A DNA stretch of 37,718 bases from IMG/VR virus record IMGVR_UViG_2617270964_000009; one strand, 5' to 3'. Numbering within the stretch: position 1 is the first letter of the stretch; every line of letters starts with the position of its first letter. This DNA comes from a virus (taxonomy: Duplodnaviria > Heunggongvirae > Uroviricota > Caudoviricetes). Under the pieces are notes generated by a model. That model searched no databases. It was not told the origin of the DNA and saw nothing but the letters and a program-made list of their open reading frames with translations. Position numbers and translations under genes: made by a program. Shown one piece after another: positions 3,332-31,147 of the stretch.

Positions 3332-3906
3332 CTGCTCCCGTGGTTATAACTGCCATCATGGATGGCGGTATTGTTATAGCGAATGGCCACAGACTGATAC
3401 TCCAGGCTGGCCAGATGGCAGCGGGCCGGTGCAAATGCAGCCAGCGTCTGACGCAGCATCGCGGCCTGATCGTTAGTAATGGGCTGTTTCAGAATAACGC
3501 GATAAACTGCCCAGGCGGCTGCATCTCCATGAACAAACAGTCCGTTATAGCTGCGATTGCCGTCGTAACTGAGACGACCTGTGCCTTCAATCAGATCCAC
3601 TTCACCAAAGCCAAAACGGCGGATAACTTCCCGGATTGACCACGGCGTCCCTTTATACCGGTGCAGTTCGATGGCTGCTTTTATAAGCATGCGGCGAACA
3701 TCGTCCGATTCCGCCAGCTCCCAGCCATCGCCAGACAGTGAGAACTGCTCGCCCAGCCATGGCAGCGCGGAACTGTCGACGATATCGACGAGAAAGACCA
3801 TCAGTACGCTCAGGTCGATGTTATCCAGCCGTCCTGCCAGTCTTCCCAGCGTCCTGAGACTGATATCACCCTCAAGCGGTGGCGGGAGTTGTAATGGCTC
3901 AGTCAT
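3328..3906 (-). CDS. Tail protein, Mu gp48 / P2 gpI-like
   Basis: 192-aa ORF placed between the baseplate J-like gene and the fibre gene, ending 2 bp before the fibre start; assignment is by synteny. Confidence 0.55.
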   Translation of the reverse strand: MTEPLQLPPPLEGDISLRTLGRLAGRLDNIDLSVLMVFLVDIVDSSALPWLGEQFSLSGDGWELAESDDVRRMLIKAAIELHRYKGTPWSIREVIRRFGFGEVDLIEGTGRLSYDGNRSYNGLFVHGDAAAWAVYRVILKQPITNDQAAMLRQTLAAFAPARCHLASLEYQSVAIRYNNTAIHDGSYNHGSS

Positions 3907-5002
3907 CAGACACTCCAGTCATGTTAAGAGTGATTGCCGTACAGTTTGCCCATTCGTTTTCTGCCACCACCCGCAGTGCCGGTGTCACCAGTTCAACCTG
4001 GTACACCCCGGAAACGGACAATGCACTGATAATCTGGCTGGGGACAATATCGCGCCCCAGCGTGGCGGCACGTGATGCCACCCAGTTCTGTATGGCGCTG
4101 TTAGCGACATCTTTTACAGACCTGGCATCCTGATCACGATAGATCGTAATCCTGGCTTCAATGGTGTAATCCACCTTCACTGGTGTTTTAGCCCGCACTG
4201 TATCAGTGAGTGGCCTGACTTTCTCATCAGAGCAGAAACTCTCTACCAGCGTGAGAACACCGCCGTCCGGCAGACCGGTACTGAGCAGCGGATACAGATC
4301 TACGGTCCCGGGAACCGGGGAAAGCACAGCAACATCGACAATGTTGGGATGGGCCTGCATGGCATGAAAGCGGTATGCGCCACGGCTTCCGGCATTGGTG
4401 AATGACTCCGGGGCCAGTCTGATACGCTCCCGGAGCCTGTCATCGTCTTCCTGTTCTGAACCGCCGGAACTGGCCGTCAGATTGCTCACCAGCAGGTCGA
4501 CGTTATCAATCTCATCGAGTAACTGACTGACCTGCGCAGGTTGCCAGCCGTTACCAGCGGTACCGGGTTCGGTACAGGTGGACGTGACATTGACCAGCAG
4601 CAATCCGGCCTTCAGTACCACATCTGTATCGGTGGCAAAAATAACGCTGTCGGAAGCGCTGACGCGGGTGCCTGCCGGGATCAGCACATCAATGGCCAGT
4701 GCCTCATCTACGGAGAACTGGAGCGTGGTAGTGGCAGGCTGCGCGGCAAGACGGTATACACCGACCAGTTCACCGAGGTAATCAATCATCGGCTCACGGG
4801 CAAAGGCGACCAGATTCTGCTTTGCTGCCTCCTGTACCGCAACCCTGACCAGCATTTCGCGATAGGCCCACAGATCAATCAGCAGACGTTCTGCCTGTGC
4901 CGGGTACAGCGTTTTGCCGGTATCCACTTCATACTTCGCAATCATTTCTGCCGTGATTTTGTCGGCATCGCGTTCAATAAAATCGGGTTCTGTCAGCGCC
5001 AT
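3899..5002 (-). CDS. Baseplate J-like protein (Mu gp47 / P2 gpJ-like)
   Basis: 367-aa ORF in the conserved baseplate position; size and synteny fit the J family; overlaps its neighbours by a few bp. Confidence 0.75.
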   Translation of the reverse strand: MALTEPDFIERDADKITAEMIAKYEVDTGKTLYPAQAERLLIDLWAYREMLVRVAVQEAAKQNLVAFAREPMIDYLGELVGVYRLAAQPATTTLQFSVDEALAIDVLIPAGTRVSASDSVIFATDTDVVLKAGLLLVNVTSTCTEPGTAGNGWQPAQVSQLLDEIDNVDLLVSNLTASSGGSEQEDDDRLRERIRLAPESFTNAGSRGAYRFHAMQAHPNIVDVAVLSPVPGTVDLYPLLSTGLPDGGVLTLVESFCSDEKVRPLTDTVRAKTPVKVDYTIEARITIYRDQDARSVKDVANSAIQNWVASRAATLGRDIVPSQIISALSVSGVYQVELVTPALRVVAENEWANCTAITLNMTGVSDD

Positions 5003-5340
5003 AGCAGCTCCTGAGTCCGGGTCTGTCCGTCTGAGCCTTTCCAGCTCACCCGGAGCGTAAGATGTTCGCCGTCGACGGCGGGTTTAACTGACATAAGCTG
5101 GCAGCGGGGCTCCCAGCGCCTGATGGCATCGACGGATTCGCGCACCACATGCGGAATGGCCCGGTCTACAGGCCAGTCGATATAAAGATGCAGATTGCTG
5201 CCGAACTCCGGGCGATGCGGGTCGCTGCCGCGGGGAGTCCGCAGGATAATTTGAATCGCCTGCCGGATATCATCCAGCCCCCGGACAATTTCGCCGGGAG
5301 CCTGCAGGGCTGGTTGCCAGAATACTGAGGTCGTTTTCAT
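4993..5340 (-). CDS. Baseplate protein (Mu gp46 / P2 gpW / T4 gp25-like)
   Basis: 115-aa ORF between the V-like and J-like genes, the conserved position for the W/gp25 wedge protein. Confidence 0.65.
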   Translation of the reverse strand: MKTTSVFWQPALQAPGEIVRGLDDIRQAIQIILRTPRGSDPHRPEFGSNLHLYIDWPVDRAIPHVVRESVDAIRRWEPRCQLMSVKPAVDGEHLTLRVSWKGSDGQTRTQELLWR

Positions 5341-5394
5341 GGGGGCAGTATTGCCCCCGTGCGGGAACGCTGATATTAAAGGCGTTTAAGAAGC

Positions 5395-5991
5395 TCAGTG
5401 GGAGTGGTGGCTGGAGTTTTCGCCATCAGACAGCATACTGCCCGTGACATGGGCATTCCCTTTAATCTCGATATTGCCATGGATGGTCGCGGTAACACCT
5501 TTACCACCAGAACCCGCCATGCCTCCTTCGTAAATCAGCTTTCCCCTGACACGCAGATCTCCGGTAAGTTCGGTTTCCGGTGCGTCAATCGTGGCTTTCT
5601 GTGTTTTCAATACCACATCAGCACCACACTCAATGACAATATGCTCAATGCCGCCCCGGATGGTCAGAGTGTGCGTCTTCCGGTTGTAGCTGTACTCTGC
5701 ACCATCAGCAAACCGGGTTCCCCGGATATTTTTGTCACTGAACGGTGGTTTATCGACGTCTGAATACACCGCGCCCAGAATAACACCATCCTCGCCGTTG
5801 GCATCGAGCAGCACCTCAACCTGCTCCCCCACGTCAGGGAGCCAGTAATCTTTGTTATCCTGGGTATTGCGCTGCAGCACGTTAAGCCAGTTTGTGCGCA
5901 GGTTATCGCATTCAGGCAGACGAACGCGGGCCTGAACCCTGTCGGCATCAACGGCACTGACCGTACCGACCTGACGAGTGACACCAGTCAT
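5395..5991 (-). CDS. Baseplate assembly protein V / spike (Mu gp45-like)
   Basis: 198 aa with a glycine-rich C-terminus (GGMAGSGGKGVTATIHGNIEIKGNAHVTG) typical of gpV spike proteins. Confidence 0.7.
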   Translation of the reverse strand: MTGVTRQVGTVSAVDADRVQARVRLPECDNLRTNWLNVLQRNTQDNKDYWLPDVGEQVEVLLDANGEDGVILGAVYSDVDKPPFSDKNIRGTRFADGAEYSYNRKTHTLTIRGGIEHIVIECGADVVLKTQKATIDAPETELTGDLRVRGKLIYEGGMAGSGGKGVTATIHGNIEIKGNAHVTGSMLSDGENSSHHSH

Positions 5992-23590: not shown

Positions 23591-24237
23591 TTCTGTAATC
23601 CTTCCCGTTCATCCAGTAACGCGTTTATCTGGTTCCGCCAGCGACGACATTGTCCTGCGTTGTCGATGATGTTGGCGAGAACGTCACGCTGGGAGACACC
23701 CGAATCGCGTAACCGGGTGTCAGTGGTTTCAGGTTGCCCGGTCGCTGTGCCAGAGCGGGTGCCAGCGGCGGCAACTGAGTCTGAATGACCGGTGTCGACG
23801 GATGCGTTGTCATATCCGAGTGCGGCGTTGTACTGGCGCACGAAACCGCGAGTAAACACGCACTCAATGGGATGGCTCTTACCTTTTTCATCAATCCAGC
23901 GCTGTGTGACATCGTTAATTTGCCCCTGTAGTTGTTTATTCCGGCTCTCCAGTTGAGCAATCTGCTCAAGATAACCGGCTTCAGCCCGCTGCCCGGCGGC
24001 CACCTGCTCCTGATACCGTCTGGCCCAGGCCCGCAGCGCAGCATTCTCAAGCGTTGTCTGCTCCGTTTTGTACGCGTCAAATGCTGACTGCAACTGACTG
24101 AGCGCGGTATCACCGTCACGCTTTGCAGAGTCATGACCACTTCTGTATCCCATGGCATACAGGCCGACCAGAAAGGCATTGATAAGAATGGCCAGCAGAA
24201 TGCCGCGCCACGGCAGCTTTTTAACCAGATGCCACAC
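23587..24237 (-). CDS. Rz-like inner-membrane spanin (i-spanin), start taken at GTG 24237
   Basis: The GTG has a GGGGAGG Shine-Dalgarno 8 nt upstream; N-terminal TM (WRGILLAILINAFLVGLYAMGY) then a coiled-coil periplasmic region; an Rz1-like ORF is embedded in the +1 frame. Confidence 0.6.
   Translation of the reverse strand: MWHLVKKLPWRGILLAILINAFLVGLYAMGYRSGHDSAKRDGDTALSQLQSAFDAYKTEQTTLENAALRAWARRYQEQVAAGQRAEAGYLEQIAQLESRNKQLQGQINDVTQRWIDEKGKSHPIECVFTRGFVRQYNAALGYDNASVDTGHSDSVAAAGTRSGTATGQPETTDTRLRDSGVSQRDVLANIIDNAGQCRRWRNQINALLDEREGLQK
23625..23891 (-). CDS. Rz1-like outer-membrane lipoprotein spanin (o-spanin), embedded in Rz
   Basis: MKKVRAIPLSACLLAVSCAS: signal peptide with a lipobox-like AVSC; mature part is proline-rich (TPHSDMTTHPSTPVIQTQLPPLAPALAQRPGNLKPLTPGY). 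Confidence 0.55.
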   Translation of the reverse strand: MKKVRAIPLSACLLAVSCASTTPHSDMTTHPSTPVIQTQLPPLAPALAQRPGNLKPLTPGYAIRVSPSVTFSPTSSTTQDNVVAGGTR

Positions 24238-24961
24238 AACTGCTGCCTCCCCATGTGAGATATCGCGGTGCCAGTTCGCGCAGGATGCGCTGCGGATAAT
24301 GGCGGTTCTCCCGCCAGCTGGCCGCATTGCGTCCGGCATTCACCGTGGCGACATGTCCGAACCAGCGGGTGCTGTCCAGACCTTTCTGTGATGCAAGCCG
24401 CCTGTCCCGTTGTACCCAGCCCAGACCACCGTTATAGCCCGACAGTGTCATGGCCATACGCTCGCAGTCACTGGCGGCGCTGACACGCTGCCACAGCCAG
24501 CGGTCATAGCTGACCAGCGCCCGGATAGCCCATGCCGGATTAAACGGCTCACGACTGCTCAGCATCGGTATCAACTGGCTTATCCAGTCGGCAGTGGCAG
24601 GCATGAACTGCGCCAGTCCCTGAGCGCCAGCCGGCGAGATCGCATCAGGTCGCCAGCCGCTTTCCTGATGCAGTTGCGCGGCGAAATCGGCCACCGGCGC
24701 AGACAGTCCCCATTCAAGCCGGGCATTACGGATCACATCATCGCGATACTGCAGCGCAGCCTGCGGAGGTTGTGCTGCGCATGCCTGGCTGAAAAAGCCG
24801 CCACACCAGAGCAACATTGCGACAAAGAATACCCATGCCATATGAACCAGAAAGGTCCCGGCGCGGACTGACAGGCGTTCGGTTCTGATGAAGACCCGAA
24901 AGGCTTCGAAAGCCAGTTTCAGGGACATGCATACAATCCAGGTGATCTGCGGCCAGTTCAT
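24221..24961 (-). CDS. Endolysin, lytic transglycosylase (SLT-domain) type with N-terminal hydrophobic/SAR-like segment
   Basis: Contains HQESGW...GAQGLAQFMP, the SLT catalytic region with the catalytic Glu; TM-like MAWVFFVAMLLWCGGFF; ATG is 2 nt after the upstream stop. An alternative start at M41 (24841) is possible. Confidence 0.7.
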   Translation of the reverse strand: MNWPQITWIVCMSLKLAFEAFRVFIRTERLSVRAGTFLVHMAWVFFVAMLLWCGGFFSQACAAQPPQAALQYRDDVIRNARLEWGLSAPVADFAAQLHQESGWRPDAISPAGAQGLAQFMPATADWISQLIPMLSSREPFNPAWAIRALVSYDRWLWQRVSAASDCERMAMTLSGYNGGLGWVQRDRRLASQKGLDSTRWFGHVATVNAGRNAASWRENRHYPQRILRELAPRYLTWGGSSCVASG

Positions 24962-24963
24962 GA

Positions 24964-25314
24964 TTAAAGCCCCATCGCAACAGCCAGGCAGACCGCTGCA
25001 ACAATCAGTGCACGGCGGATTAACGCAGCAGAAAACACCAGGTGAAGGCCGGTCTGTACCGGGAAACGCCCTTCAGCCATCAGCCTGTCGTCATGTTTCA
25101 GGTACTGACCGGGACGGGCTTTGGGGAAGAGCGAACGGTCAAGCCAGTAACCCAGCACTGCTGCCAGCGTGATGAGTGCCAGCTTGTAGATCACAACAGG
25201 CAGCTGCTGTGGTGAGACCAGAGCGATGGTGCCCAGCAACAGCACTGAGGTCAGCAGCCAGCCGCTGAGGCGAGGTTTTTTAACAGGGGGAATGAATTTT
25301 TTCAGGTTTTTCAT
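24964..25314 (-). CDS. Holin-like membrane protein (3 predicted TM segments)
   Basis: Start chosen at ATG 25314 (MKNLKKF) with a GAGGAG Shine-Dalgarno 7 nt upstream; three hydrophobic helices; sits first in the lysis cassette. Confidence 0.5.
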   Translation of the reverse strand: MKNLKKFIPPVKKPRLSGWLLTSVLLLGTIALVSPQQLPVVIYKLALITLAAVLGYWLDRSLFPKARPGQYLKHDDRLMAEGRFPVQTGLHLVFSAALIRRALIVAAVCLAVAMGL

Positions 25315-25444
25315 GTGTGTCTCCTCGTTTGGTGGAGACAGCATCACAAATACAGGGCGCAAAGGATTTTAAAGCGCGTTAAGAGAGCCGGGGATACGGG
25401 ATGTGCAGGATAAACGATGAATTATTCACAGAGGAGAATACGAT

Positions 25445-26173
25445 ATGACGCACACACTGAATCCGGTCATCACTGTCACTGTGTCCGATCCTGTGGGCAG
25501 CGGTAAAAGTTACGTACTGGCGCGGATAGAAGAGATGGTGAAACAGGAACTCGGAAACAGCGTCATTGTCGATGCTGCTGACGTGGAGAATGAGCGCCGT
25601 ATGAATGGCGAAGATCTGACGACCTGGCAGAAGCCACGGGGTGGCACAGTGATCAGGCTGGAGGAATACACGGGACAGGGCCTGTTGTCATACGGCGAGG
25701 AGCGTATCTGTCGGACGAATGAGCTGCTGGATGTTATATGCCCCACGGGCCGGCAACCCTGGATACTGCCCGATGCACTGCATGCCACCATTGCGGCACT
25801 GATGACAGTTTACGATCAGGAGCTGCTCATGAAGGAGTTACGTAAACTCACCGGTCAGCCAACAGAATGTTGTTCGTCTCCGAAGTACGGCAAACAGGAA
25901 CACATCCCGATTAACCAGCCTCCCCGGTTCTTCGACGAATACCTTCTGACACCGGAAAATAAAGCTGAGCATGAAGAGATCAAAGCGGCGTTGTTCCGGG
26001 AAATCAGGAAGATTGCTGAAATGCAGTTGGGGGGCGGGCTGGACAGAGTGATGGCGAGAGGAGAATGGGCATCGCTGTTTGAAAGAGTTTCCCCGGAATT
26101 ACTTCCCCTCGCACTGGCTATCGGGATTATGCAGACAGCGGATAAACCTCACTTACGTTCATTAAACACGTAA
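25445..26173 (+). CDS. Hypothetical protein (242 aa) with a degenerate P-loop-like motif
   Basis: Strong RBS (GAGGAG, 7-nt spacing); N-terminal VTVSDPVGSGKSY resembles a Walker-A-like P-loop but is non-canonical; no other recognisable domain. Confidence 0.5.
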   Translation: MTHTLNPVITVTVSDPVGSGKSYVLARIEEMVKQELGNSVIVDAADVENERRMNGEDLTTWQKPRGGTVIRLEEYTGQGLLSYGEERICRTNELLDVICPTGRQPWILPDALHATIAALMTVYDQELLMKELRKLTGQPTECCSSPKYGKQEHIPINQPPRFFDEYLLTPENKAEHEEIKAALFREIRKIAEMQLGGGLDRVMARGEWASLFERVSPELLPLALAIGIMQTADKPHLRSLNT

Positions 26174-26553
26174 CGCATAATCCGGGATACGCATTCAGCG
26201 ATGACTGCATTTTCACCGGTTTTTACTGCATCCAGAAGTGACTCTTTAAATGGTACGGGCCGGGGCTGCAGAAAGGTCGGCATGGCATTGAGCAGACAGA
26301 GCGTTTTTTCCGTGAGGACGACATCAGCCGCTCCCACAGCCAGCAACTGAGAGTAACGAATATAGCTGTTATCCCGAAGCCATATCAGCGTATCAATAAA
26401 ACACCGGCACTTTTTCTGGTCGTGATCAACCTGGTCCGGGATATCGAAAAAACCAGAATAAATCAAAACCTGAGGTGCCGGATGCGTGTTCAGTAATCGG
26501 CAGAATATTTTGCCGGTGAGTACATAAAAATCATCATTTAAGGAGTGCATCAT
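26149..26553 (-). CDS. Hypothetical protein (134 aa)
   Basis: Starts ATGATG with GGGGA upstream; its 3' end overlaps the 242-aa ORF by 25 bp (convergent) and its start codon overlaps the 71-aa ORF start (divergent). Confidence 0.35.
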   Translation of the reverse strand: MMHSLNDDFYVLTGKIFCRLLNTHPAPQVLIYSGFFDIPDQVDHDQKKCRCFIDTLIWLRDNSYIRYSQLLAVGAADVVLTEKTLCLLNAMPTFLQPRPVPFKESLLDAVKTGENAVIAECVSRIMRYVFNERK

Positions 26554-26767
26554 GAATCCCCGATTAACGTTAACAGAACATCAGCGCCGTGCTGAAGCAG
26601 TGAACAATGTTCTGGAAGATATTATCCGGTTATACCGCGGAGAACTGAGTGTCTGTCGTGCCGCTTTTCATTTTCAGGGAATACAAAAGCAGTTTGATAC
26701 TTCTGTTTTTGCAGAAGGTATTACTTATGCCCTGGACCGGATAAGGTCAGAAAATCGCCCCGGATAA
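26552..26767 (+). CDS. Hypothetical small protein (71 aa)
   Basis: AAGGAG Shine-Dalgarno 6 nt upstream of the ATG; no recognisable motif. Confidence 0.4.
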   Translation: MNPRLTLTEHQRRAEAVNNVLEDIIRLYRGELSVCRAAFHFQGIQKQFDTSVFAEGITYALDRIRSENRPG

Positions 26768-26957: not shown

Positions 26958-27725
26958 ATGAAAATGCAGACATTACCCATCGTGCCGTGGATTGGTGGCA
27001 AACGCCGCCTTGCAAAACACATTCTGCCGCTGTTTCCGGCGCATGAATGTTATGTGGAGCCGTTTTGTGGGGCAGCAGCGCTCTATTTTCTTAAGACACC
27101 CGGCAAGATCGAAGTCATCAATGATATCAACGGTGAACTGGTGAATCTGTACCGGGTGGTAAAGCATCACCTGGAAGAATTTGTCCGCCAGTTCAAATGG
27201 GCGCTGGTCAGCCGTCAGATCTACAAATGGCTGCAGATCACCCCGGAAGAAACACTGACGGATATCCAGCGTGCGGCACGGTTCTACTACCTCCAGAAGC
27301 AGGCGTTTGGTGGCAAGGTGGCAGAGCATAGTTTCGGCACCTCCACCACATCCCCGCCACGCTTCAACCTGCTGCGTATTGAGGAAGAGCTCTCAGCGGC
27401 ACACCTGCGACTTTCCAGAACGGTGATAGAACACATGGACTGGCAACAGTGCATTGAGCGTTATGACCGTCCGCACACGCTGTTCTACTGCGACCCACCG
27501 TACCTGGGTACGGAAGGCTATGGTGTGGATTTTCCTGAAGGGAACTACTCGCGGTTGGCAGAGCTGGCCCGTTGCATCAGAGGAAAGATGATTATATCGG
27601 TCAACGATATCCCGGAAATGCGGCAGGTTTTTAACGGTCTGAACATTCACTGTGTGAAGGTCAACTACAGTCTTGCAGGAAAGGGAACACTACGGCGCGA
27701 ACTTATTGTAAGTAATTTAGAGTAG
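26958..27725 (+). CDS. dam: DNA adenine methyltransferase, Dam/D12 class (N6-adenine)
   Basis: N-terminal PIVPWIGGKRRLAKHILPLFP, the AdoMet motif EPFCGAAALYF and the catalytic DPPY tetrapeptide (FYCDPPYLGTEGYG). Confidence 0.85.
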   Translation: MKMQTLPIVPWIGGKRRLAKHILPLFPAHECYVEPFCGAAALYFLKTPGKIEVINDINGELVNLYRVVKHHLEEFVRQFKWALVSRQIYKWLQITPEETLTDIQRAARFYYLQKQAFGGKVAEHSFGTSTTSPPRFNLLRIEEELSAAHLRLSRTVIEHMDWQQCIERYDRPHTLFYCDPPYLGTEGYGVDFPEGNYSRLAELARCIRGKMIISVNDIPEMRQVFNGLNIHCVKVNYSLAGKGTLRRELIVSNLE

Positions 27726-27750
27726 GCTCAGAAGGAGGTAAGTAGTCTTG

Positions 27751-27782
27751 CATAACAATGCACCTGATGGTGCATTGTTATG
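27751..27782. terminator. Perfect 14-bp stem / 4-nt loop hairpin between convergent dam and the RexB-like gene
   Basis: cataacaatgcacc-tgat-ggtgcattgttatg; overlaps the stop codon of the minus-strand gene and is followed by a moderately T-rich stretch on the plus strand. Confidence 0.4.
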
Positions 27783-28215
27783 ATATCACTTTGATTATAT
27801 TGAATAATCGCCTACCTGTTTGTAATAAACACAACATAGACATAACAACAAGCCCAATGAGGATAGCGGCTACAATCTCTTGATGCTTACTTTGCAGCAT
27901 CAACCCAATCAAACATGTCAACACCAACACTAGCAAAACTAAGCAAGTGTAGAATGCATCGGTCATCAGACGCTTGTAATGTCCGGTTTTTTGCATGTTT
28001 TTAAGTAACGGTTTATCAAGCAATGATGCAAGTAGTGCAATTGCTGTAATAATAAAACCTAACAACGTTGCAAAGACACTGGACAATGTAGTCATGAAGT
28101 TTGGGATTGCGGCTACTGGCATATGGGGCAACTTGAACCAGTAGAGAAAACCAATCCCACATCCAATCAATAAACTAAGCAATAGGGCCGAGTTCATCTT
28201 CTCCAATATATGCAT
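27778..28215 (-). CDS. RexB-like four-TM membrane protein (about 145 aa)
   Basis: Start taken at ATG 28215 (GGGAGAG Shine-Dalgarno, 5-nt spacing); four hydrophobic helices; the TLSSVFATLLGFIITAIALL segment resembles lambda RexB TM2 as recalled from memory; last gene of the repressor operon; low GC. Confidence 0.55.
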   Translation of the reverse strand: MHILEKMNSALLLSLLIGCGIGFLYWFKLPHMPVAAIPNFMTTLSSVFATLLGFIITAIALLASLLDKPLLKNMQKTGHYKRLMTDAFYTCLVLLVLVLTCLIGLMLQSKHQEIVAAILIGLVVMSMLCLLQTGRRLFNIIKVIS

Positions 28216-29068
28216 TGATACTCTCCCGGTTTTCAGCATACGCAGTATCGATTAGACGGTACATGGTTTCGGCTGGAGGGAAACGAGCGTCAGTAACTAC
28301 CGATTGATAGGACGAAATACGCTCGGCAATCAAATCCACAGGATGGACAACACCATCAGCATCGAACACATCAATTACAGCCTTTTTCGCCCCAAACTCG
28401 ACTAACTCTTGCATAGCAAATTTTATATTCTGCTTAAGCCTACCATCACTATCGCCACGGCGAGTATTAATCCCCATTACAATTTGCATTGTATCGGCAC
28501 CTGCATCACCAAGCAGTTGTAGTGTCTTTTGACTGAAATCAGTATCAGGGTAAAACTCAGGATTACGGGGGCGAGGAATCGTCAACTGGATTTTTTTCAT
28601 TTTGACATCTCCTCTCATAAGCCTAGCGATTGCATCTTTTTCCAGCAAAGGTGCGGGCTTAACCTTTGAACCAAAGATAGTTGAAAGAAATGCACTAAAA
28701 CGGCTTATACCACAAGCCATATGATTATAGTGCCAACCTATAACATTGATTCGAGGATAGAATACAAAGAAATTGCGCTCAATGATCCCTTCATCCTTGG
28801 CAAGTGGAATAGGGGTAGACTGTTTCCCTGGTGCACCTTTATCCGGAATGTTCGAGTTGCGAAATTTTCTCAACTCTCCACTAAAAGAACCATCCGCGCG
28901 TTTTTTCAACCCCCAAATTTCTCTAGTAAAACCCTCATGGTTTGAAGAGGAAGGGCTCTGTTTATCAATTACAGATTGAAAAGCATCTCCGAGATTTGCC
29001 AGCTGATCTGTGGCCTTAAACGATAGCTGATGAAACTCAATACGATAATTTCTCACATCACCACTCAT
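28175..29068 (-). CDS. RexA-like protein (297 aa), partner of the membrane protein
   Basis: AAGGA Shine-Dalgarno; sits directly downstream of the CI-like repressor in the same orientation; size near lambda RexA (279 aa); low GC. Homology is unverified. Confidence 0.5.
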   Translation of the reverse strand: MSGDVRNYRIEFHQLSFKATDQLANLGDAFQSVIDKQSPSSSNHEGFTREIWGLKKRADGSFSGELRKFRNSNIPDKGAPGKQSTPIPLAKDEGIIERNFFVFYPRINVIGWHYNHMACGISRFSAFLSTIFGSKVKPAPLLEKDAIARLMRGDVKMKKIQLTIPRPRNPEFYPDTDFSQKTLQLLGDAGADTMQIVMGINTRRGDSDGRLKQNIKFAMQELVEFGAKKAVIDVFDADGVVHPVDLIAERISSYQSVVTDARFPPAETMYRLIDTAYAENRESINAYIGEDELGPIA

Positions 29069-29139
29069 ACGATTAATCCTTAACGCGGAAAGTTCAGATG
29101 GTTAGTGCAAACAGCACATCCTACTGTTTAAATCAGCGC

Positions 29140-29170
29140 ATATAACGAAGAGGTTTGATAACCTTGTCAA
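29140..29170 (-). promoter_or_regulatory. Candidate sigma70 promoter for the rexA/rexB-like genes (TTGACA-19 nt-TTATAT on the minus strand)
   Basis: Found in the 122-bp gap between the repressor stop and the rexA-like start; the spacer is 19 nt, which is long. Confidence 0.25.
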
Positions 29171-29190
29171 TTGTTCTCATTGGGAATAGA

Positions 29191-29607
29191 TTAACCCACA
29201 TTTTTTAACCGCTCAATCGTTGCGGATAATTCCTTCAGTTGTTTTTCCATCTCGATCACTCGCTGTTTTTCCGCAGCGCCTCGCAGAAGATCGTTACGAA
29301 CCTCGGGGTCTAGCTGCTTTAAAAGCTCAAGCATAGTAAGGTCAGCTTGGCTAAACTGCACTTGCGTCGGAGTTACGTCTACTTCTTTTGATAAACCTTG
29401 TTTTCTACCTGTTAGCAACCAATCTAAAGAAACCCCCTTTTCTTCTGCGATGTTTATGCAAATTGCATAAGGCACAGAATCACGCTTCCTCCAACTTGCA
29501 AGTGTCTGCCTATTGACGTTAAGCGCTCTTGCCAACTCACTATCATTCTCTGCTTGGAATAGTGACATTAACCGGGAAAGCACAGCGTTAACATCTTTGT
29601 TATTCAT
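29191..29607 (-). CDS. CI-like prophage repressor (HTH; no peptidase domain)
   Basis: SELARALNVNRQTLASWRKRDSVPYAICINIAEEKGVSLDWLLTG is the phage CI-repressor HTH signature; coiled-coil C-terminus; divergent from the ner-like gene. ATG at 29607 preferred over the track's upstream start at 29622. Confidence 0.75.
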   Translation of the reverse strand: MNNKDVNAVLSRLMSLFQAENDSELARALNVNRQTLASWRKRDSVPYAICINIAEEKGVSLDWLLTGRKQGLSKEVDVTPTQVQFSQADLTMLELLKQLDPEVRNDLLRGAAEKQRVIEMEKQLKELSATIERLKNVG

Positions 29608-29637
29608 TTTGCGTAATTCCACTTGATTTATTTATTT

Positions 29638-29657
29638 TGAATAAGTACATTTATTCA
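29638..29657. promoter_or_regulatory. Operator-like palindrome in the repressor/ner divergent control region
   Basis: tgaataa-gtacat-ttattca (perfect 7-bp arms); AGTACAT recurs 19 bp downstream at 29663-29669; the whole region is AT-rich. Confidence 0.3.
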
Positions 29658-29695
29658 TATTGAGTACATGATAACCCAACTGGAACTATCCGCAT

Positions 29696-29920
29696 ATGAA
29701 TAAACAACAAGTTCGGGCACGACTAGTTGAACGAGGCAGTAGCTTGCGCCAGTTCGCGCTTAACGCAGGCTATGAGCCACGAACAGTCACACAGGCAGTC
29801 AGTCGCTGGGCTGGTAAAAGTGAACTACCACGTGGTCGTTTGACTTATCGGATTTTGCGAGATCTATCGGTTGCAATAGGTAAAGAAGTTACCCCCGGTA
29901 TCCTTAAGGAGGTGTCATGA
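29696..29920 (+). CDS. ner: Ner-like DNA-binding protein (Cro analogue of Mu-like phages)
   Basis: 74 aa; SLRQFALNAGYEPRTVTQAVSRWAG matches the Ner family pattern; first gene of the rightward early operon, divergent from the repressor. Confidence 0.65.
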   Translation: MNKQQVRARLVERGSSLRQFALNAGYEPRTVTQAVSRWAGKSELPRGRLTYRILRDLSVAIGKEVTPGILKEVS

Positions 29921-30225
29921 ATAAACCAAATACATCAAGCGCAGGTACCCGTATTTTGCGTGTTCTTAAGGCGTTACGTGGCCACGCTCTGAACGGTATC
30001 TCCAACGGTGAACTGGCGGCAGCACTGCACGAGTCACCAGCAAACATTAATCGGGCACTCAACACCCTCATTGAAGAAGGGCTGGCCCTGAAACTGGAGA
30101 ATGGACGTTTTGCACCGGGCATCCAGTTACTGCAGATCGCCATGGCTCACAGTAACGAGATGGCACGAGCGCAGGATCGTATTAACGAAATCAACCAACG
30201 TGTCATTTCAGGTAGTCGTTTATAA
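29917..30225 (+). CDS. Putative winged-helix DNA-binding protein (102 aa)
   Basis: AAGGAGG Shine-Dalgarno; start overlaps the ner stop; GISNGELAAALHESPANINRALNTLIEEGLA looks like an HTH. Confidence 0.45.
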   Translation: MNKPNTSSAGTRILRVLKALRGHALNGISNGELAAALHESPANINRALNTLIEEGLALKLENGRFAPGIQLLQIAMAHSNEMARAQDRINEINQRVISGSRL

Positions 30226-30235
30226 GGAGTAATCA

Positions 30236-31147
30236 ATGGGACGTACCAAATCACCAATGTCCACTGATCTGAATGCTGAGGTGCCGCTGTCTGATGATCT
30301 CAACATCAGTCTTAATACCATGGCACAACACCGCGTGGAGATCATGCAGCAGTTCGGCGATGGTCTGCCTTATGAACGTGATCGCATTGTTCACGAAGCA
30401 CGCTTTTATATGGCACAAAGTGCTGAGGCCATGCTAGAGGCAGGTAAACGACTGATAATACTGAAAGAAAATGAACCACATGGTGATTTCATAAATATTG
30501 TCGAGTCTGAATTATCAATGTCAAAGCGTACTGCACAGGTAATGATGCAGGCATCAATAAAATATTTATCACCACAACTTGAGTCAAAAGCGCAGACGTT
30601 TGCGCTTTTAGGAAAAGCCAAATTATTCGAGTTAATGACGGAAGACGATGAAAACCTTGCCGAACTGGCTGATGGTGGCACTGTTGCCGGCCTGACGCTT
30701 GACGACGTTGATCGCATGTCAGTACGCGAACTTCGCCAGGCCCTGCGCGAAGCGCGCGAAACCAACGCAGCACAACAGCGCGTACTCGCCGATAAAAATG
30801 AAAAAATTGATTCTCTCTCTACCAGACTGGAAAAGAAATCCCGTATTCAGCCGCCTGAGCCTGATGAGGAGGTTAAGAAGCTGCGGGCGGAAGTGACAGC
30901 ATTAGCGGTTGAGGCGGAATCTGCTATCGCCGTCCGACTGTCCAGCGCTTTTGAGACACTGTGCGCATATTGTGCTGAAAACATGATTGATACCCCCAGA
31001 GACTTCATGGCAGGCCTGGTCTGTCAACTGGAAAGCACAGCGCGTAGCCTGCGCTCCACATTTGACCTGCCGGACGAGCCAACAGGCAATGCAGCGCCTT
31101 CATGGCTGACTGAGCCGACGCCACAGATTAACGGGCTGGAGGCATAA
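30236..31147 (+). CDS. Hypothetical early protein (303 aa), acidic with coiled coil
   Basis: AGGAG Shine-Dalgarno; immediately upstream of the transposase; no recognisable catalytic motif. Confidence 0.45.
   Translation: MGRTKSPMSTDLNAEVPLSDDLNISLNTMAQHRVEIMQQFGDGLPYERDRIVHEARFYMAQSAEAMLEAGKRLIILKENEPHGDFINIVESELSMSKRTAQVMMQASIKYLSPQLESKAQTFALLGKAKLFELMTEDDENLAELADGGTVAGLTLDDVDRMSVRELRQALREARETNAAQQRVLADKNEKIDSLSTRLEKKSRIQPPEPDEEVKKLRAEVTALAVEAESAIAVRLSSAFETLCAYCAENMIDTPRDFMAGLVCQLESTARSLRSTFDLPDEPTGNAAPSWLTEPTPQINGLEA

Follow-up and report, generated by a model that had tools for sequence, protein, structure and literature searches.

A candidate Rex-type two-gene module downstream of the immunity repressor in a Mu-like prophage of Escherichia coli

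The repressor-proximal genes of the prophage

The stretch of DNA analysed here, referred to as the window, comprises 37,718 nt and carries a transposable BcepMu/Mu-like prophage of Escherichia coli. Gene calls were cross-checked with the RefSeq annotation of an identical prophage, which contains Ner-like, DUF3102, DDE transposase, ExeA/MuB-like, Gam and Mor genes and also includes a holin/SLT lysis cassette and Mu-type head genes. Two genes of this element, termed A and B, are encoded on the minus strand together with a CI-type repressor located immediately upstream of A (Table 1). The open reading frames and the RefSeq annotation thus confirm that all elements of the original prediction are present at the coordinates it had given, in the predicted shared orientation. 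The repressor comprises 138 aa when read from the ATG at 29607, or 143 aa from the GTG at 29622.

Table 1. Features of the repressor-A-B region, in coordinates of the window.
Feature	Coordinates	Strand	Description
Stem-loop	27751-27782	minus	perfect 14-bp stem, starting at the B stop codon and located between B and the convergent Dam gene
ORF-B	27778-28215	minus	145 aa; RefSeq CDS WP_016238311.1; predicted four-helix inner-membrane protein; proposed RexB-like effector
ORF-A	28175-29068	minus	297 aa; soluble, no predicted TM segment; divergent DUF6731 protein with a predicted RexA-type two-domain fold; proposed sensor/activator
Spacer, repressor stop to A start	29069-29190	minus	122 nt, no terminator-like site
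CI-type repressor	29191-29607/29622	minus	Pfam Phage_CI_repr, 1.2e-17; PHROG transcriptional repressor families; RefSeq CDS
Ner/Cro-like gene	29696-29920	plus	74 aa, divergent; weak Pfam HTH_35 (Ner family) match, 0.0071, below cut-off

Several features of the locus relate to the joint expression of these genes. A consensus scan of the spacer between repressor and A found neither a terminator nor a minus-strand promoter, and the sequence itself displays a perfect TTGACA hexamer with a poor -10 element; transcription of A via read-through from the repressor promoter is therefore plausible, and a weak promoter of its own is possible. B starts 41 nt before the end of A, an overlap that suggests translational coupling. 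The ATG of B is preceded by a Shine-Dalgarno sequence (GGGAGAG), while a 153-aa reading of B from position 28239 is less likely. The hairpin at the end of B folds as RNA with -22.5 kcal/mol (z -5.96), a stability reached by none of 200 shuffled sequences. It is not followed by a U tract and was left uncalled in the terminator scan because the T run is missing; it likely marks the transcript end or stabilises the transcript. On the other side of the repressor, the Ner/Cro-like gene, which has a counterpart among the annotated CDSs of a sibling prophage, constitutes the opposing part of the immunity switch and lies outside the A-B module.

The GC content amounts to 0.42-0.44 over positions 27501-30000, to an intermediate 0.48-0.49 at 30001-31000, and to 0.53-0.60 both from position 31001 onwards and across the late genes (24001-25500). 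A and B are hence indeed lower in GC than the late genes, as had been predicted, but the low-GC island is not confined to them and also takes in the repressor and the Ner-like gene. In comparison with the copies found in Limnobaculum and Serratia, dN/dS is 0.05-0.09 for A and B (0.055-0.086 for B). Because these values are low, the family of A spans more than 1,000 clusters and B is conserved beside A at every locus examined, both are real genes under strong purifying selection and not chance ORFs.

Likeness of A and B to the Rex proteins of phage lambda

Rex was the first abortive-infection system to be described. We know of no settled account of its trigger or of how RexA is coupled to RexB. 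In direct model searches, A itself matches no Pfam family at E<=1, DUF6731 (PF20505) included, and no PADLOC or NCBIfam model. A word-indexed search identified 17 homologues of A, and PF20505 is carried by those with 73-76% identity as well as by all relatives with 40-47% identity. Furthermore, a profile built from the homologues retrieves 1,051 clusters (50% identity clusters, E<=1e-3), whose named members are all designated 'DUF6731 family protein' and come from Enterobacterales, Pseudomonas-like genera, Shewanella, Pseudoalteromonas, Vibrio, Thiococcus and others. By transitive homology, A is therefore assigned to DUF6731 as a divergent member. B likewise has no Pfam match above threshold and fits no PADLOC defence model or NCBIfam model. 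Among PHROGs, A and B match only 7651 (1.5e-19) and 8552 (3.8e-7), neither of which has a known function. A megablast search of the region against the phage collection and a viral scan with a Metapseudomonas DUF6731 member each returned nothing, and the literature searched contains neither a mention of DUF6731 nor an experiment on a DUF6731 protein.

The original prediction had likened A to RexA, and this likeness holds at the level of the predicted fold but not at that of sequence families. The RexA models of Pfam (PF15969) and PADLOC (PDLC02339) match lambda RexA with 1e-97 and 9e-110, respectively, and do not match A. Alignments of shallow and deep DUF6731 profiles with RexA by hhalign were not significant (probability 2.5-3.4%, P 0.013-0.018), and each time comprised one co-linear segment, A 88-152 (to 257) against RexA 81-148 (to 238). 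Among PDB sequences, a profile of 124 DUF6731 sequences did not retrieve the RexA entry 8TWQ, and phmmer with A did not reach RexA at significance; the best profile match there, eIF2-alpha at E 0.017, was taken as chance.

The structural comparison gives a different picture. The predicted model of A has its best fold match specifically with lambda RexA (8TWQ), and RdgC as well as the kinetochore proteins CHL4/CENP-N and IML3 score lower. RexA consists of a globular domain that is split (positions 1-139 plus 248-279), an inserted domain for dimerisation (143-234) and an alpha-8 helix with a kink. In the model, A starts with an N-terminal sheet and helices, continues with an inserted domain at about 136-235 comprising four strands and three to four helices, and returns to the sheet before ending in a C-terminal helix that is broken in two, so that the order of its elements matches the split globular domain and the inserted dimerisation domain of RexA. 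As modelled, A thus has a RexA-type two-domain fold, which makes common ancestry of the two proteins likely. When A was searched against viral models with Foldseek, the matches comprised an RdgC-like protein and four phage proteins that are uncharacterised (E 5e-14 to 9e-8), and lambda RexA was not among them. Since the same type of fold is also that of RdgC and of kinetochore DNA binders, the fold alone is no proof of a defence function. Conserved positions of A include the motifs RKFR and IDLIADR, both highly conserved, and the invariant basic residues R49, R57, R67, K68, R70, K158, R166, R203, R204, K216 and R250.

For B, the resemblance to its lambda counterpart lies in size and topology, as the original prediction had proposed. 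B comprises 145 aa and lambda RexB 144 aa, and the four hydrophobic segments of B (13-23, 44-63, 91-105 and 115-129) occupy near-identical positions in RexB, with a K/R-rich central loop between TM2 and TM3 that holds five K/R residues in both proteins. Family-averaged hydropathy profiles of the two correlate with r 0.6 at offset 0 to -2. The TLSS resemblance at TM2 is likewise real, as lambda RexB 44-ATLSSYAGTMIAILIAALTFL and B 42-TTLSSVFATLLGFIITAIALL lie at the same position (RexB 44-ATLSS, B 42-TTLSS); TLSS is not conserved in the B family, and the two families share only a conserved (A/G)-T where TM2 begins. The B family is marked by the motif TLLGF..T...L..D(K/R)xLxxNMxKTGH(Y/F).

Sequence and structure comparisons do not carry this resemblance further. 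The RexB models of Pfam (PF15968) and PADLOC (PDLC02340) match lambda RexB with 8.5e-92 and 8.6e-61 and do not match B, which also lacks an NCBIfam match; since the Rex models match the lambda proteins but neither A nor B, both lie outside the RexA and RexB sequence families. BLASTP of B against RexB (E 0.4) was not significant, nor were hhalign comparisons with RexB profiles (probability 3-4%, P about 0.01). The alignment of a 29-sequence B profile with 25 RexB sequences is co-linear (39-84 against 41-85) and scores 20.2 (P 0.014, probability 3%), compared with about 12 in reversed-sequence controls; below significance as it is, this sequence match can be considered suggestive. AF2 modelled B as four long helices at low confidence (pLDDT 59.9, pTM 0.41), and a Foldseek search of this low-confidence model against BFVD yielded no fold match (best E 1.0). 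We know of no solved RexB structure. Given the non-significant hhalign result and a poor model that lacks a fold match, the RexB-likeness of B is architectural only, and homology to RexB is unproven.

A small protein with several TM helices, encoded about 2.4 kb from a lysis cassette, could also be a holin or antiholin of the prophage lysis module. This is very improbable for B, as no holin family is matched in Pfam or PHROG, and a separate operon of the prophage already supplies holin, SLT transglycosylase and spanin-like genes; this cassette remains intact in siblings that lack B (L021-L023). In addition, B goes together with A throughout, also in phages with holins annotated elsewhere.

Pairing of A and B and their genomic contexts

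The pairing of the two genes extends across the family. Thirty-five DUF6731 loci were examined, comprising 12 contig look-ups or genome contigs, 21 viral contigs and two Shewanella-type viral contigs, the latter with a DUF6731 protein that is 24% identical to A. In all 35, down to this identity, a B-like membrane gene lies directly downstream of the DUF6731 gene, usually with an overlap of 17-41 nt, and encodes a four-helix protein of 140-157 aa with the motif GxLxGF...(A/S)xxD(K/R/N)xLxxN..(K/R/L)TG(H/Y). Within the loci examined, the pairing is thus strict.

The position of the pair is variable. It directly follows a LexA-like CI repressor in two loci (L014 and L040, the second with a divergent Cro), a CI repressor and one further gene in a third with a divergent Ner-like gene (L047), and an HTH repressor and two further genes in a fourth (L007). 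Elsewhere, lambdoid prophages (L003-L006) carry the pair in opposite orientation, with the Q antiterminator on one side and methylase/holin genes on the other. It adjoins portal and terminase genes of the P2 type in L041, follows Mu-type late genes in L043 and neighbours a SIR2-like gene in L046. All of the contexts named, those next to a repressor included, represent cargo slots of unrelated temperate phages. Consequently, the lambda-like order of repressor, A and B recurs in five lineages, the present one included, but is not obligatory. The predicted cI-rexA-rexB-like order therefore holds in these five lineages, and the proposed wiring to the immunity repressor is not a property of the family as a whole, as illustrated by the Q-lysis slot and by the portal-adjacent position in a P2-like phage.

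The recurrent position next to a repressor is relevant for a different reading, according to which the main role of the pair is to tune the lysis-lysogeny switch of its own prophage, as lambda RexA does without RexB, with exclusion absent or incidental. For lambda RexA, binding to CI and Cro and a stabilising effect on the lytic state are described (PMC11077077), and the placement of A-B after the repressor in five lineages, with one or two genes in between in two of them, is in line with such a role. Nevertheless, we regard it as having a small chance of being correct, as the pair is missing from the majority of sibling prophages and also occurs in slots distant from repressors (the lambdoid Q-lysis slot, the P2-type portal region and the neighbourhood of the SIR2-like gene). 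It would also leave the strict pairing with a membrane protein unexplained.

The frequency of the pair among siblings was determined in 5,426 complete E. coli genomes. The prophage backbone is present in 637 of them, with the transposase region at >=95% identity in 621, and the A-B module in 23, in essentially identical copies. About 96% of the E. coli prophages with this backbone therefore lack the pair, their slot being empty or occupied by another cassette. Outside E. coli, Limnobaculum and Serratia harbour related Mu-like prophages with the module, at nt identities of 87% and about 72%, respectively. In this lineage, the A-B pair is optional cargo.

The alternative contents of the slot between Dam and the repressor are informative. 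It is empty in three siblings (L021-L023) and holds an 88-aa gene in another (L024), while in a heteroimmune group of 19 genomes (L002) it is occupied by genes for a 335-aa YejK/NA37-like protein and a 401-aa membrane protein. These two proteins have distant NCBIfam DS1_1/DS1_2 matches (1.4e-17 and 3e-21, far below cut-off), and the C-terminus of one of them is weakly matched by PADLOC KwaA. DS-1 is a validated E. coli anti-phage system with a YejK domain (PMC13092281). With empty, A-B or DS-1-like contents among siblings, the slot behaves as a defence hotspot, and the repressor-downstream position of a common E. coli prophage lineage, present in 12% of complete genomes, can thus be viewed as such a site.

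The variable occupancy of the slot also has a bearing on whether the pair serves defence at all. It might instead be a moron without a defence role. Examples would be a cytoplasmic regulator combined with a small membrane channel or transporter, changing host physiology, or an addiction pair resembling a toxin-antitoxin system. No defence family of PADLOC or NCBIfam is matched by A or B, and low GC content combined with patchy distribution would fit any horizontally acquired cargo. We consider this explanation quite unlikely, given that the fold of A is matched best by RexA specifically, that cargo slots of temperate phages and defence-type neighbourhoods are the only settings of the pair, and that siblings carry a DS-1-like cassette in the same slot.

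A putative exclusion module and its relation to known systems

Taken as a whole, A and B probably form a prophage-encoded two-component phage-exclusion module of the Rex type, a defence role that is suggested by fold, architecture and context. The proposed mechanism is as follows. A would be a cytoplasmic protein of the RexA/RdgC fold, probably a dimer, which may bind DNA or a phage protein-DNA intermediate, and B a small inner-membrane protein of four helices whose synthesis the gene overlap would keep in a fixed ratio to that of A. A fixed ratio would matter because Rex activity is sensitive to stoichiometry (PMC12894663). Low-level expression of both proteins in the lysogen would most likely come from the repressor transcript, which would end at the hairpin after B. 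Upon superinfection by another phage, A would be activated and would then switch on B, presumably through direct interaction, and B could compromise membrane potential or integrity, so that the infected cell would arrest growth and the infection would be aborted. We infer exclusion and membrane depolarisation as the outcomes of A-B activity.

The logic between the two proteins might also be reversed, in the manner of Kiwa or of the Butters proteins gp30/gp31. In that case, B would sense or restrain, and the DNA-binding protein A would clamp phage DNA and block replication or transcription, or would become toxic once released from B. The predicted fold of A, of the RdgC/RexA DNA-clamp type, and its many invariant basic residues are in agreement with this, as is the same-slot cassette of the siblings, in which a nucleoid-associated-type protein is combined with a protein whose C-terminus weakly matches KwaA. 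Moreover, the Butters Rex-like pair is reported to work with the soluble protein as effector (PMC12894663), unlike the lambda-type logic proposed here for A and B. Such a reversal appears unlikely to us, and activation of a membrane effector by A remains the preferred reading.

More speculatively, and with a rather low likelihood, DUF6731 and its obligate 4-TM partner could represent the largest, so far unrecognised branch of a Rex superfamily, and thus a widespread defence module of Gammaproteobacterial temperate phages that current defence finders cannot see. The signalling logic of this branch may differ from that of lambda, in that B could sense membrane events while A clamps invading DNA. 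If this were true, the 70-year-old Rex problem would become approachable via a large, diverse and tractable family. Confirmation of the DUF6731/B pair itself as a Rex-type module would assign a function to a DUF with about a thousand sequence clusters, extend Rex-type defence to phages of many Gammaproteobacteria that are transposable, lambdoid or P2-like, and add a missed system to PADLOC and NCBIfam, probably also to other defence finders. The highly conserved motifs in A and B would then be available for mutational study of the RexA-type switching of a membrane effector.

Rex-type exclusion by two genes is already known, with only five Rex-like systems described so far (PMC12894663); what is new is the combination of DUF6731 and its partner, which is unannotated, goes unrecognised by the tested defence-finder models and has no mention in the literature searched. 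Only 19 phage records make up the canonical RexA family, compared with the 1,051 DUF6731 clusters at 50% identity. In both lambda Rex and the present pair, a soluble and a membrane protein are encoded by adjacent, co-oriented genes downstream of the immunity repressor. However, the 41-nt overlap of A and B contrasts with a gap of 15 nt between rexA and rexB, and the host is here a transposable Mu-like phage with a Phage_CI_repr-type repressor.

Among other systems, Kiwa (KwaA/KwaB) likewise consists of two genes for a multi-TM protein and a soluble, DNA-targeting protein; membership in it was rejected, as neither A nor B has a KwaA or KwaB (DUF4868) match in PADLOC or Pfam. DS-1, identified by DefensePredictor as a YejK-like protein with a partner, similarly combines a DNA-binding-type protein with a membrane-associated one, and its distant relative occupies the same repressor-downstream slot in siblings, but its protein families differ from those of A and B, which have no NCBIfam DS match. 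RdgC, CHL4/CENP-N and IML3 act without a membrane partner and have chromosomal housekeeping or eukaryotic roles. In the actinophages, the pairs Sbash gp30/31, CarolAnn gp44/43 and Butters gp30/31 each combine a RexA-like soluble and a RexB-like membrane protein, exclude heterotypic phages and, in several phages, adjoin the immunity repressor (PMC11077077; PMC12894663). Their hosts are Actinobacteria, and they are likened to A-B by description only.

A further known Rex-type system is RexABpp of the Pseudomonas putida prophage P1 (PP_5643/PP_5644). N- and C-terminal peptides deduced from the published PP_5643/PP_5644 primers had no match among the 203 proteins collected, and a 25-nt pattern from these primers was absent from the viral contigs searched. 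RexApp is detectable as RexA by HHpred (98%; PMC12894663), whereas A was not detected with hhalign. Compared by published description only, RexApp-His has 37.5 kDa and RexBpp at least 181 residues, as against about 33 kDa for A and 145 aa for B.

Genes occupying the repressor-downstream slot

The interval between the Dam gene and the CI-type repressor, which in the window holds the soluble DUF6731 protein ORF-A and the membrane protein ORF-B, carries a different gene pair in heteroimmune sibling prophages, encoding a 335-aa YejK/NA37-like protein and a 401-aa protein. In the sibling prophage L002, this two-gene cassette resembles the NCBIfam models of the anti-phage system DS-1 only distantly, scoring 63.7 bits against DS1_1 and 75.9 bits against DS1_2, both below the respective cut-offs of 330 and 315 bits. 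A PADLOC match to KwaA of the Kiwa system (8e-5) is limited to the C-terminal part. Judged from these sequence matches, the cassette is probably a divergent DS-1-type system, and such a reading would mark the repressor-downstream slot as a defence hotspot.

Features of the window, of the sibling prophage L002 and of the marine viral contig L046
Feature	Location	Strand	Remarks
Second variable cargo region	window 25445-26767		between holin and Dam gene
242-aa protein	within window 25445-26767		Walker-A-like GSGKS motif; PHROG 3787
134-aa protein	within window 25445-26767	opposite to the 242-aa protein gene	overlaps the 242-aa protein gene; PHROG 2266
71-aa ORF	within window 25445-26767
Orphan Dam-type N6-adenine methyltransferase	window 26958-27725	+	Pfam MethyltransfD12 1.2e-29; PADLOC MTase_II 1.4e-112
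Perfect 14-bp inverted repeat, 4-nt loop	window 27751-27782		starts at ORF-B stop codon, between convergent ORF-B and Dam
Two-gene cassette	L002 (NZ_CP017220.1) 3734-5949	-	corresponds to window slot 27726-29190
SIR2-like protein	L046 1361-2389		flanks DUF6731/B pair
461-aa protein	L046 4441-5826		flanks DUF6731/B pair

Surroundings of the slot

The Dam gene, which is convergent to the ORF-A/ORF-B module, is kept in all sibling prophages independently of the slot content. On its other side, the genes of the second variable cargo region are absent from L002 and are replaced by a DUF2441 gene in another sibling, L024. The inverted repeat next to ORF-B is highly stable (-22.5 kcal/mol, z -6), and inspection of both its sides revealed no adjacent U tract. 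It may represent a bidirectional transcript-end element, an RNA-stabilising element or a recombination scar from cassette insertion.

Related proteins and gene pairs in other contexts

On L046, a Shewanella-type DUF6731/B pair lies between a SIR2-like protein, whose Pfam SIR2 match (1.6e-4) is below the cut-off, and a 461-aa protein, a neighbourhood which looks like a defence island. When a profile of 124 DUF6731 sequences was compared with PDB sequences, its positions 210-287, approximately ORF-A residues 211-288 in the C-terminal part and including the IDLIADR motif, aligned marginally (E 0.017) with residues about 48-126 of eIF2-alpha; we take this match as chance.

Beside some canonical homologues of rexB, a gene of the phage lambda exclusion pair RexA/RexB, rexA is missing or fragmented. 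These homologues, in a Sodalis sp. and a Logan contig (loci L019 and L020), are 46-56% identical to lambda. No rexA is found among the called genes beside rexB in L019, and in L020 the Pfam RexA domain PF15969 is broken into pieces of 68 and 152 aa; together, the two loci suggest that rexA has decayed while rexB has been kept.
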